A DNA stretch of 64,000 bases from Amoebidium appalachense (taxonomy: Eukaryota > Protista > Ichthyosporea). Positions 42,701 through 45,700 of this stretch are shown here, in pieces; positions within the stretch are counted from its first letter, which is position 1; the number at the start of each line of letters is the position of its first letter. The translations under genes were made by a program, and so were the position numbers. The notes beneath the pieces are model-generated. The model searched no databases. It worked only from the letters and a program-made list of their open reading frames with translations, and was not told where the DNA came from. The DNA lies in NCBI GenBank assembly GCA_963693365.1, contig CAVNZM010000014.1, forward strand, positions 3,534,001 to 3,598,000, written 5' to 3'.

Positions 42701-45700
42701 CCCCATCACCCCCCTTCTTTGGGCCCCTAAATATGTGTAAGGTCGCAATGCATTATATGCAGGGTTTCTTAACAGCCGCACACCAACCGGAAAGAGCGTA
42801 GTTCGATTGAAGTATATTCGGGAGTGGAATCTAGGAAAAGAAGTAAACTGAAGAGGGAGAAATAAAATGGGCGAAAATGAGAAGAATAGAATACATGCTT
42901 TCTTTCACGGTATTCAAATGACCCTGTAGCAGAGGACAGGATGAACGCCCGAGGATTGTAGCTGCTGCCCTTCTCCTGCCTCTCCTGTGTGCCAATGCGT
43001 GCAGCCCAATATTAGCCTTTTTTGGTTACTTTATTCTTTGGAATAATACATTTGTTTACATGGAATGCAATCCAAGCACGGACAGGGAAAAAAAGGCAAA
43101 AAACACGAGACAATTTCAAAAAAAAAAAAAAAAAAAGGTTTGCAGGCAACGGGAGGGAGAGAGGGGGGCAAGGGCCGGCGGGGGGAGGGGGGGGGGGGGG
43201 GTGGGGTGGGGGGGGGGGGGGGGGGGTGGAAAGGTGCTGCCGAGTGCAAAGTACACACTAACGATGGGCAACATGCACTTTTGCAGAGCACACACAAATC
43301 ATGCATCATACAAATGAGGGGGGAGGGGGTAGGGGGGGGAAATTGGGGGAGGGGGGAGAGGAGGGGGAAGTGGGCGAGGGGGAGGGGGGGGGGGGGGGGG
43401 GGGGAGGGGGGCTGAGGGGGAGAATTTGAATGTGTTACAGAGTGCAAAGTACACACTGACGACCGACAGCACAATGCAAAAATGCAGACAACACGCAAAG
43501 TATGCATCATACACATGAGGGGGAAAGGGGGGGGGGGGGGGGGGCTGGCTGTGGTTAGAATGGGTTATAGAGTACGAAATACACATGTATAACGGACAAC
43601 ATAGCAAAGAATGCACACCATGCAGATTATGCATTGGGGAGGGCATGGGGGATGGGGGTGTGGTAATCTAACCTTACATGCAGCTCTTTTTACCGACACA
43701 TTCATAACGGATATCATAACGAAAAATGCACACCATGCATGCATGAGTTTGAGTTTTTTTTTTTTTTTTTTTTTTTTTTTTGGGGGGGGGGGGGGGGGGG
43801 GGGGGGGGGGGGGGGGGGGGTTTGAATGCGGAACACGGTACGAAGTACGCATACACGATGAGAAGCATGGTGCAGGACACATGCAAAGGCAAACATTCAA
43901 GTATGCAACATCAGCCATGTGCACAGTACGCGTCATAAGCAGAGCCCATCCTCAGGGAGGACCCAAGTCATCAATTGCGTCTGAGTTTCGACCCCTTAGC
44001 CCGCGTATATACGACTCTCCAACTCAGACAGCAGCATCAACTGAACTTGGGAGGGTCAACCCGTCTTGATCAAAGACGAGCAGGGTTGCTTATGCAAGCA
44101 AGGTGAGCAAAACGGTGAAGATGTGTGTGCAAACTAAAGCAGTGCAGCGAAAAATGCGTATGTGCTTACAGATGCACGACACAGGGCAACCATGCCCGGT
44201 TGCATGGAAGTAAAGCGGTCTTGGGGATCTAACCTTATATGCAGCTCTCTGGGCCGACTCCAGCTTTGCCTTCTCCTCTGTGGCTTTGACTTGGTCCCCA
44301 CACTGGATGGCCGCAGTCACATGCGCCCATAATCTGCAGGAATACGTGAATATGATGGAATATCATGGGGGGAATATGTGAATATGATGGTGGGAATATG
44401 AAGGATATGATGGTGGGAATATAAAGGATATGATGATGGGAATATAAAGGACATATATGATGATGGTAATATGTAAAATTTGCTGGATTATGATGATGGG
44501 AATATAAAAGGATATGATGATGAGAATACGTGTTTGAGGGAATATGATGATGGAAATATAAAGGATATGACGATGAGAATACGCGAAAATGAAGGAATGT
44601 GATGGTGGGAATATAAAGGATATGTTGATTGGAATACGTAAATGTGCAGGAATATGATGATGGGAATATAAAGGTATGATGGTGGGAATATAAAGGATAT
44701 GATGGTGGGAATATTAAGGATATGATGGTGGGAATATAAAGGACATAATGATGGGAATATAAAGGATATGATGGTGGGAATATAAAGCATATGATGGTGG
44801 GAATATAAAGCATATGATGGTGGGAATACGTAAATGTGCAGGGATGTGATGATGGGAATATAAAGGATATGATGATTGGAATACGTAAATGTGCAGGAAT
44901 ATGATGATGGGAATATAAAGGATATACGTGGTGGGAATATAAAGGATATGATGGTGGGAATATGAAGGATATGATGGTGGGAATACGTAAATGTGCAGGG
45001 ATGTGATGATGGAAATATAAAGGATATGATGGTGGGAATATAAAGGATATGATGGTGGGAATATAAAGGACATAATGATGGGAATATAAAGGATATGATG
45101 GTGGGAATATAAAGGACATAATGATGGGAATATAAAGGATATGATGGTGGGAATATAAAGGATATGATGGTGGGAATGTAAAGGACATAATGATGGGAAT
45201 ATAAAGGACATAATGATGGGAATATAAAGGATATGATGGTGGGAATATAAAGGATATGATGGTGGGAATATAAAGAACATAATGATGGGAATATAAAGGA
45301 TATGATGGTGGGAATATAAAGGATATGATGGTGGGAATGTAACGGACATAATGGTGGGAATATAAAGGATATGATGGTGCGAATATAAAGGATATGATGG
45401 TGGGAATATAAAGGACATAATGATGGGAATATGAAGGACATAATGATGGGAATATAAAGGATATGATGGTGGAAGGATATGATGGTGGGAATATAAAGGA
45501 TATGATGGTGGAAATATAAAGGATATGATGGTGGGAATATAAAGGATATTGATGGTGGGAATATAAAGATGGTGGGAATATGAAGGATATGATGGTGGGA
45601 ATATGAAGGATATGATGGTCGGAGTATGAAGAATATGATGGTGGGAATACGTAAATGTGCAGGGATGTGATGATGGGAATATGCAGGGATATGACCATCA

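Follow-up and report, generated by a model that had tools for sequence, protein, structure and literature searches.

A candidate non-circularly permuted hammerhead RNA in a high-copy, probably Penelope-like repeat of Amoebidium appalachense

The window analyzed here, a 64,000-nt stretch of an Amoebidium appalachense contig, is eukaryotic in character, intron-rich and dense in simple repeats. On its minus strand, an exon at 46937-47176 encodes part of an oxysterol-binding protein (PF01237) whose gene spans approximately 46800-63300. Exons further upstream look like parts of the same gene, and the repeat copies at 52740 and 59345, as well as a reverse transcriptase (RT) copy, are likely to be intronic and in the sense orientation. 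Elsewhere in the window, an 845-codon open frame (5331-7868, minus strand) specifies repeated Ala/Pro/Thr-rich units that match no Pfam family, and a perfect 391-bp direct duplication (56169-56559 and 56868-57258) reflects either a recent duplication or an assembly effect.

A preliminary description of this DNA, made from the sequence alone, had proposed that copies near 43930, 52740 and 59345 share a pseudoknotted RNA core. Using a profile built on these three copies, and accepting matches at E values up to 0.17, we located the repeat at 25 places in the 64-kb window, 23 of which have the same orientation. Nineteen of the 25 matches begin at model positions 1-9 and vary in where they end, as expected for a fixed 3' end with 5' truncation. 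Among 18 tail copies (one weak match of the 19 was omitted), the 30-nt flank was at least 60% G in 16, compared with 9% of window positions. A fixed 3' end, variable truncation and a G-rich flank together give the pattern of a retroelement that is copied into poly-C and whose sense strand is the minus strand. We consider it likely that the core-bearing repeat, which is dispersed and high-copy, is a mobile element (Table 1). Its only opposite-facing copies (35283-35526 and 37785-37913) lie within or beside a plus-strand gene that has a weak SNRNP27 match at 37016-37078, and which way a copy faces likely depends on the strand that carries the intronic C runs. Adjacent copies, which we inspected for the partial tandems of pLTRs, are present and are separated by G runs. 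A second tail family, found at 53049-53400 and also at 22162, 22360, 24338, 9056 and 37785, shares the CUGANGA block with the first tail type and has U at core position 7; in its longest copy the upstream fold differs, being a 19-bp inverted repeat, and the G block lacks one A.

Public contigs from two DNA runs supplied 3,676 and 8,593 records over 43780-44330, depths that do not equal copy numbers. High contig depth over the focal copy stops at 44221, where loose ends begin, and a long degenerate tandem array (44331-45694) lies about 110 nt from this truncated end. Over the 59345 copy, contig depth (again not a copy number) is high across all of 59265-60060 and falls off upstream; for 550 nt or more on the upstream side of the core, this high-copy stretch lacks a long open reading frame. 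In run X12, depth over 59265-60060 was patchy and C>T and G>A changes were almost complete at several positions, a pattern that suggests a base-converted library, and the variants of this run were therefore excluded. Among the copies analyzed in the window, those at 43930 and 59345 were the only full ones found intact.

Table 1. Repeat copies in the window and parts of the focal RNA (43930 copy), listed in the sense of the element.
Feature	Position	Strand	Remarks
Focal repeat copy with core	43821..44221	-	Fixed 3' end at ~43821; 5' truncation at ~44221, other copies longer; from profile and contig depth
Poly-C run (element sense) at fixed 3' end, putative insertion target	43782..43820	-	From sequence and G-rich flanks
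Second intact copy	59268..60060	-	Core 59354-59506; predicted cut 59436/59435
Copy 52740, predicted dead	52745..52885	-	Helices retained; GAA changed to CAC; block C deleted
Copy at window end	63809..64000	-	98% identical to 43930 copy; cut by window edge; blocks G and C intact
5'-truncated copy	9151..9238	-	Blocks S, G and C (U4C, C11.1G); fused to second ('B') tail type
Old diverged copy	58047..58208	-	Helices partly retained; core decayed
5'-truncated Penelope-like RT copy, Naiad/Chlamys type	61370 to ~62915	-	Open frame over RT; between C runs
Basal stem, 5' strand	44087..44093	-	Partner 43935-43941
CCC prolonging basal stem	44083..44085	-	Partner GGG 43945-43947, directly after CUGANGA block; pair probability 0.89
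Hairpin vi, 8 bp	44059..44081	-	UGAUCA palindrome in loop; with basal stem, fills A9/G10.1 gap
Upstream strand of hammerhead stem II	44052..44057	-	G10.1 = 44057; pseudoknot partner 43990-43995
Joining helix (outer ends of stems II and I), 5' strand	44045..44051	-	Partner 43962-43968
Block S	44017..44029	-	Stem III 5' strand 44022-44029; U17 = 44021; stem I strand 44017-44020
Predicted cut (by analogy)	44021/44020	-	Within block S
Inner palindrome, small hairpin	44004..44013	-	Linker separating blocks S and G
Block G	43979..43995	-	Stem II strand 43990-43995, C11.1 = 43990
Block G, remainder	43979..43989	-	G12, A13, A14 = 43987-43989; stem III 3' strand 43979-43986
Joining helix, 3' strand	43962..43968	-	From pairing and fold prediction
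Block C	43948..43959	-	Stem I strand 43956-43959; C3-U4-G5-A6-G7-G8-A9 = 43949-43955; extra U 43948
GGG and basal stem 3' strand	43935..43947	-	Alternatively 3' arm of hairpin ii

Most of the helices in the preliminary description were borne out. The basal stem (ATAAGCA/TGCTTAT) has its full 7 pairs and hairpin vi its full 8 in each of the three copies 43930, 52740 and 59345; the long stem is present and corresponds to hammerhead stem III on the minus strand. Hairpin ii forms 6 of 6 pairs in both intact copies, though the 43930 copy reads GGACCC where GGGCCC had been given and the region is lost in copy 52740. The inner palindromes exist, but the inner hairpin had been drawn out of register; likewise, the loop segment does pair beyond the long stem in a pseudoknot that is firm over 6 bp and not 9. 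Between the 43930 and 59345 copies, four pairs changed on both sides and three on one, and none of the 42 pairs in seven helices was broken (the eighth helix being the misregistered inner hairpin). Helices were 94% paired, compared with 28-49% in slid controls, and in a six-copy alignment 89% of 146 cells were paired, compared with 27-52%; the observed six-copy values were equaled by 18-33 of 500 column shuffles. Covariation over the six copies is thus suggestive and lies below an R-scape-level test, and the two-sided changes support the earlier proposal that pairing has been kept by selection while the sequence changed.

The functional strand had been left undecided. We assign it to the minus strand from wobble bias, with 13 G-U and 4 C-A pairs in the three copies, all four of the latter at pseudoknot positions 7-9, outside the firm 6 bp. 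We rejected the plus-strand reading, which runs contrary to this bias and lacks the core described below. Folding-energy z-scores were modest (-2.2 and -0.7 for minus, -2.5 and -1.1 for plus) and did not discriminate between strands. A 7-bp helix in competition with hairpin ii, here termed the joining helix, had also escaped the preliminary description; it has a pair probability of 0.8-1.0 in the 43930 copy, where hairpin ii is near 0, and of at most 0.09 in the 59345 copy, where hairpin ii is at about 0.2. Palindromes in the loops of hairpin vi (44067-44073) and of the inner hairpin (44004-44013; 59423-59430) could permit loop-loop dimers, and the former palindrome is absent from copy 52740. 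The selected RNA structure near the fixed end of the repeat is real.

The minus strand contains every conserved hammerhead nucleotide: a GUU triplet, C-GAAA between two helices, and CUGA(G/U)GA with stem I. Positions are given in the commonly used hammerhead numbering, in which core position 7 is free. One side of the long stem ends in GU-U and the other is reached through C-GAAA, which makes this stem hammerhead stem III, with block S on the first side and block G on the second. Approximately 30 nt after block G comes CUGAGGA, and the 3-4 letters preceding it can pair with those following the triplet to give stem I. The CUGANGA block, with C3-G8 and the 5' stem I strand, is present at 43949-43955 and 59368-59374 on the minus strand; stem I has 4 and 3 Watson-Crick pairs in the two intact copies (about -3.7 kcal/mol), the third of which changes from A-U to G-C between them. 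Both copies contain C11.1-G12-A13-A14-A15.1 between stems II and III, with an A15.1-U16.1 pair. GAAA also occurs in the copies at 63920 and 9175 and is lost in those at 52740 and 58047. One tail type has G at position 7 and the other has U, the remainder of the block being unchanged. The triplet conforms to NUH, with U at position 17 in 5 of 5 copies covering the site, and U17 could pair with A14 and so extend stem III; among 45 control type II hammerheads the triplet was GUC in 38, GUA in 7 and GUU in none. Cleavage after GUU by an engineered hammerhead is reported in PMC9217987.

What sets this RNA apart is the location of stem II. Instead of directly following CUGANGA, the strand with G10.1 sits about 100 nt upstream, and the pseudoknot of the preliminary description is hammerhead stem II, the strand in block G pairing with the upstream GACC segment. 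Stem II forms 6 of 6 pairs in three copies, with two two-sided changes between the intact ones, and in public contigs the variants 59413 T>C and 59467 A>G occur at matched shares (per-site frequencies of 4.4% and 4.2% in run X1, and 3.1% and 3.7% in run X2). A9 is not joined to stem II within 0-2 nt, and the contiguous strand yields only 2 bp. As the covarying 6-bp strand is upstream, the RNA is hammerhead-like and lies outside the six defined types. Judged by sequence, its blocks are in the order S-G-C, preceded by the upstream stem II strand, a non-circular permutation that matches none of the six published orders as defined. Readings as type I, II or III hammerheads were discarded, as nothing matched with a contiguous 3-bp stem II.

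In the joining helix, the 7 nt that follow the upstream stem II strand pair with the 7 nt that precede the stem I strand; this helix has 7 of 7 pairs in both intact copies, one of the pairs being changed on both sides. A variant at 59464 (51% in run X1) converts a U-G pair of this helix to C-G and breaks the eighth pair of the longer pseudoknot. In predictions with a program unable to form pseudoknots, the joining helix dominates the ensemble of the 43930 copy only. The unconstrained fold of that copy is the nested scaffold described below, with the stem II strand unpaired and block C buried in a small hairpin. The scaffold does not dominate in the 59345 copy (constrained folds of -47.2, versus -48.1 for the hairpin ii form), where the CCC/GGG extension of the basal stem has a pair probability of 0.17.

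We searched for the core with descriptors that were composed after the motif had been recognized. An order-free descriptor (blocks S, G and C plus a free stem II strand) retrieved the two intact copies, in the order ASGC, and the same S/G/C descriptor found one unrelated plus-strand site elsewhere in the window (both strands, 128 kb). It matched none of 20,000 shuffles of each intact copy, and when the helices were held fixed the core was rebuilt in 2 and 1 of 200,000 shuffles; because the two copies are related, the latter result counts as one observation. In a hand count of low power, among the rows listed, variation of at least 2% in some run affected 1 of 14 core positions and 13 of 139 others. 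The Rfam model Hammerhead_1 aligned to the block G part of the 59345 copy at 14.2 bits (cut-off 34), covering model positions 14-38 of 45. At the gathering score, Rfam yielded only c-myc IRES within the window, on G and C runs at 24666-24845, which we take to be an artefact of those runs; E-value scans gave weak matches only. Neither Rfam nor a tRNA-derived head accounts for the structure. ARAGORN found no tRNA genes and there was no Rfam match over 59230-60100, which led us to drop a tRNA-derived SINE, although the true 5' end may lie beyond. A hammerhead catalytic core is present on the minus strand, a correction to the preliminary description, and we regard it as very probable that the structure derives from a hammerhead.

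The repeat behaves like a Penelope-like element (PLE) of the Naiad/Chlamys type, in that it combines 5' truncation, a fixed 3' end and a (C)n target. According to PMC8557442, Chlamys elements target (C)n, and Naiad/Chlamys PLEs are described as being without canonical hammerheads, some having half cores 35-50 nt apart. The window also contains an RT copy with DKA and YIDD motifs and just 166 residues after YIDD, and hence without a C-terminal nuclease; it ends 20 nt past its stop codon, without a hammerhead core. Both motifs were found in 88 of 120 RT homologues after filtering, CxC lay upstream in 36 of the 37 that were sufficiently long, and a long C-terminal tail was seen in 1 of the 88. 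The top homologues are only 33-43% identical, and the copy had no PDB match and no Pfam family. Its sequence appears to fit Naiad/Chlamys as characterized in PMC8557442. A Naiad/Chlamys-type RT with the same target thus exists in the genome and may mobilize the core family. Naiad/Chlamys elements are expected to carry in cis an open reading frame with an N-terminal GIY-YIG, CxC and DK-RT. We found no RT gene linked in cis to a core copy in the window and no open reading frame in the upstream part examined, and we gave up an initial reading of the RT at 61370 as the open reading frame of the element itself.

We propose that the basal stem, hairpin vi, the joining helix and stem III would form a nested scaffold in which the terminal loop of stem III and the GACC strand further upstream both stay free. 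Two pseudoknots would then arise from this loop: one, with the upstream strand, would be stem II, and the other, with the strand that precedes CUGANGA, would be stem I. Between A9 and G10.1 the chain would be open, the link being supplied by the basal stem and hairpin vi, and the joining helix would keep stems I and II next to each other in the manner of type-SGC ribozymes. Such a hammerhead may cut slowly after GUU, at bonds predicted by analogy with known hammerheads (Table 1). Given GUU and a stem I of 3-4 bp, cutting would be slow or conditional, and RNA left uncut, or held together by its helices, would remain as template; a Naiad/Chlamys-type RT, likely acting in trans, would copy it into runs of poly-C. 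We estimate a probability of about one in two that the minus-strand RNA of this high-copy, likely Penelope-like repeat is such a non-circularly permuted hammerhead, with a split-core fold that cuts.

Retention of the fold does not by itself imply catalysis. In place of a ribozyme, a catalytically silent scaffold derived from a hammerhead might bind RT or an RNP, its core letters surviving as a relic of the fold and the bound fold setting an internal start of reverse transcription approximately 110 nt further 3'. The constant GUU, the possible A14-U17 pairing and the shortness of stem I would accord with this, as would copy 52740, which keeps its helices without the core. Moreover, summed contig depth, a weak measure, has no step at the predicted cut (in run X1, 1.19 and 1.19 million on either side for the focal copy, and 1.03, 0.96, 0.86 and 0.97 million for the 59345 copy). 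There is also a precedent in the anole PLE, where, according to PMC11167929, cutting by the hammerhead is dispensable in vitro, uncut RNA is the main template and the RT starts in an internal stem loop; by the same token, the lack of a depth step is still compatible with a ribozyme. Against a silent scaffold, both core blocks are retained across diverged subfamilies and both tail types while position 7 varies, and the core persists in a diverged contig record of the 59345 stretch. A loose-end consensus with a 52740-like stem II also keeps GAAA (at an agreement of only 0.65), such that core loss in 52740 looks specific to that copy. We judge a silent scaffold unlikely on balance; the scaffold and ribozyme roles are mutually compatible, and RT recognition, the other function first proposed for this RNA, may be either a rival or a second role of the fold.

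A switched, true type-SGC hammerhead would instead use GG after CUGANGA-U as a 2-bp stem II closed by the outer hairpin ii, with the upstream strand acting as a repressor until displaced. A descriptor with a contiguous stem II in which 2 bp are allowed retrieves exactly the two intact copies in the order SGC, hairpin ii is fully paired in both and nearly tied in energy in the 59345 copy, and, in at least one gene whose transcription runs in the sense of the copies, host pre-mRNA would be spared by an off state. But the 2 bp are followed by a G-G mismatch and requiring 3 bp abolishes the match, the GAAA-side strand co-changes with the upstream and not the contiguous strand, the exact G10.1-C11.1 pair comes from the upstream strand, and duplex energies favor the upstream strand (-9.4 versus -5.4 and -7.7 versus -2.2); we find this reading improbable. 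A new class of ribozyme, or a double pseudoknot like that of HDV, could be argued from the lack of an Rfam match at the gathering score, from the two interlocked pseudoknots and from the CGAA before the closing helix, which resembles the J4/2 strand of HDV. A loose descriptor of the nested double pseudoknot (P1-P2-P3-P1.1 with the J4/2 cytosine), run without a positive control, had no matches on either strand of both intact copies (four strands); the conserved unpaired letters are, besides, explained by a full hammerhead core. Such a class is very improbable, and of the original proposal of a new ribozyme we keep the pseudoknotted RNA in a retroelement-like repeat and consider the RNA probably a rearranged hammerhead. 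Equally remote is the absence of any selected structure, in which case the helices and motifs would be look-alikes arising by chance or by descent within a young family of repeats: the sequences are few, z-scores modest and column shuffles sometimes equal to the data, yet two-sided changes in four helices, the G-U strand bias and the shuffle nulls all oppose it.

Searches beyond the window returned no relatives of the core. A pattern scan of viral contigs gave 124 loci, including 45 canonical type II hammerheads, some with two per contig, and none matched the repeat profile. Two further viral scans (4 and 7 loci) and metagenome contigs (7 loci) contained no homologues of the core, the best model score being 19.2 bits on a 45-nt hairpin; the split-core descriptor had no matches in the 11 viral loci and the profile none in the 7 metagenome loci. 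A search with the RT returned no related loci from viral or prokaryote contigs. In a literature search with most subscription journals outside its coverage, we found no report of an active split at the A9-stem II link, and none of a split-core hammerhead or of a permuted one in a retroelement.

We put forward more tentatively that the RNA is an active hammerhead of a seventh topology, its catalytic core opened between A9 and G10.1 and closed again by a two-helix insert, and that a Penelope-like family has spread it in large numbers. If so, non-circularly permuted hammerheads would have their first representative in the genome of a eukaryote, Naiad/Chlamys hammerheads that seem "missing" or "half-core" would be rewired ribozymes invisible to standard descriptors, and ribozyme searches would undercount genomic hammerheads. 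There are six permutations in the current scheme because CUGANGA and its stem II strand are treated as one unbreakable block, and PMC10085705 assumes that the A9-stem II link is uninterruptible. One bulged nucleotide between 9 and 10.1 is common in hammerheads (PMC4209133, PMC1636495), and PLE hammerheads retain it (PMC4209133). Were a natural ribozyme to be split at this link, the scheme would have to be extended and a new site for aptamer or helix insertion would be marked. The question bears on whether the Naiad/Chlamys clade truly lacks ribozymes and on the role of hammerheads in PLEs, and a 170-nt RNA with a predicted cut bond makes activity directly testable.

Among known systems, PMC10085705 (Eckert et al. 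2023) divides hammerheads into blocks S, G and C in six orders and reports active SGC and CSG forms with an outer stem I-II helix. The window RNA shares with these type-SGC/CSG ribozymes (HRIMA-1) the cyclic S-G-C order, pseudoknotted stems I and II, a stem I-II linker, a predicted outer joining helix in the same place as helix 'I' of type SGC, and a U after A9. It differs in that its stem II strand is about 100 nt upstream and not after CUGANGA, in its GUU and in having G at position 7. Relative to the SGC pattern published there (contiguous stem II of at least 3 bp, linkers of at most 8 and 15 nt), the order agrees and the remainder does not, the linkers being 18-21 and 16-19 nt. The SGC and CSG forms reported there derive from metatranscriptomes and metagenomes, with none from genomes of known organisms except one weak GCS candidate.

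With the type I hammerheads of PLE pLTRs and non-LTR retrozymes (PMC4209133; bioRxiv 10.64898/2026.07.22.740005), the window repeat has in common a core near a retroelement-like end, the 9-10.1 nucleotide, G10.1-C11.1 and a non-coding derivative; its order is not type I, and its copies are dispersed and 5'-truncated rather than perfect tandem monomers. Its long, stable stem III means that no dimer would be needed, unlike in those ribozymes. Pseudoknotted type II hammerheads of bacteria and phages (PMC3088659; loci among L001-L124) resemble it in their CUGANGA-U-G and GUC-GAAAC signatures and their stem I-II helix, but have the cut site between blocks G and C and a contiguous stem II, an arrangement that 45 of the 124 loci fit and the window copies do not. 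With Naiad/Chlamys (PMC8557442; Craig et al. 2021), the repeat shares 5' truncation, a fixed 3' end, a (C)n bias and no canonical hammerhead, and differs in being without an open reading frame in the 550 nt upstream of the core and without an RT in cis; an RT of this type does share the window with the core copies and likewise lies in poly-C.
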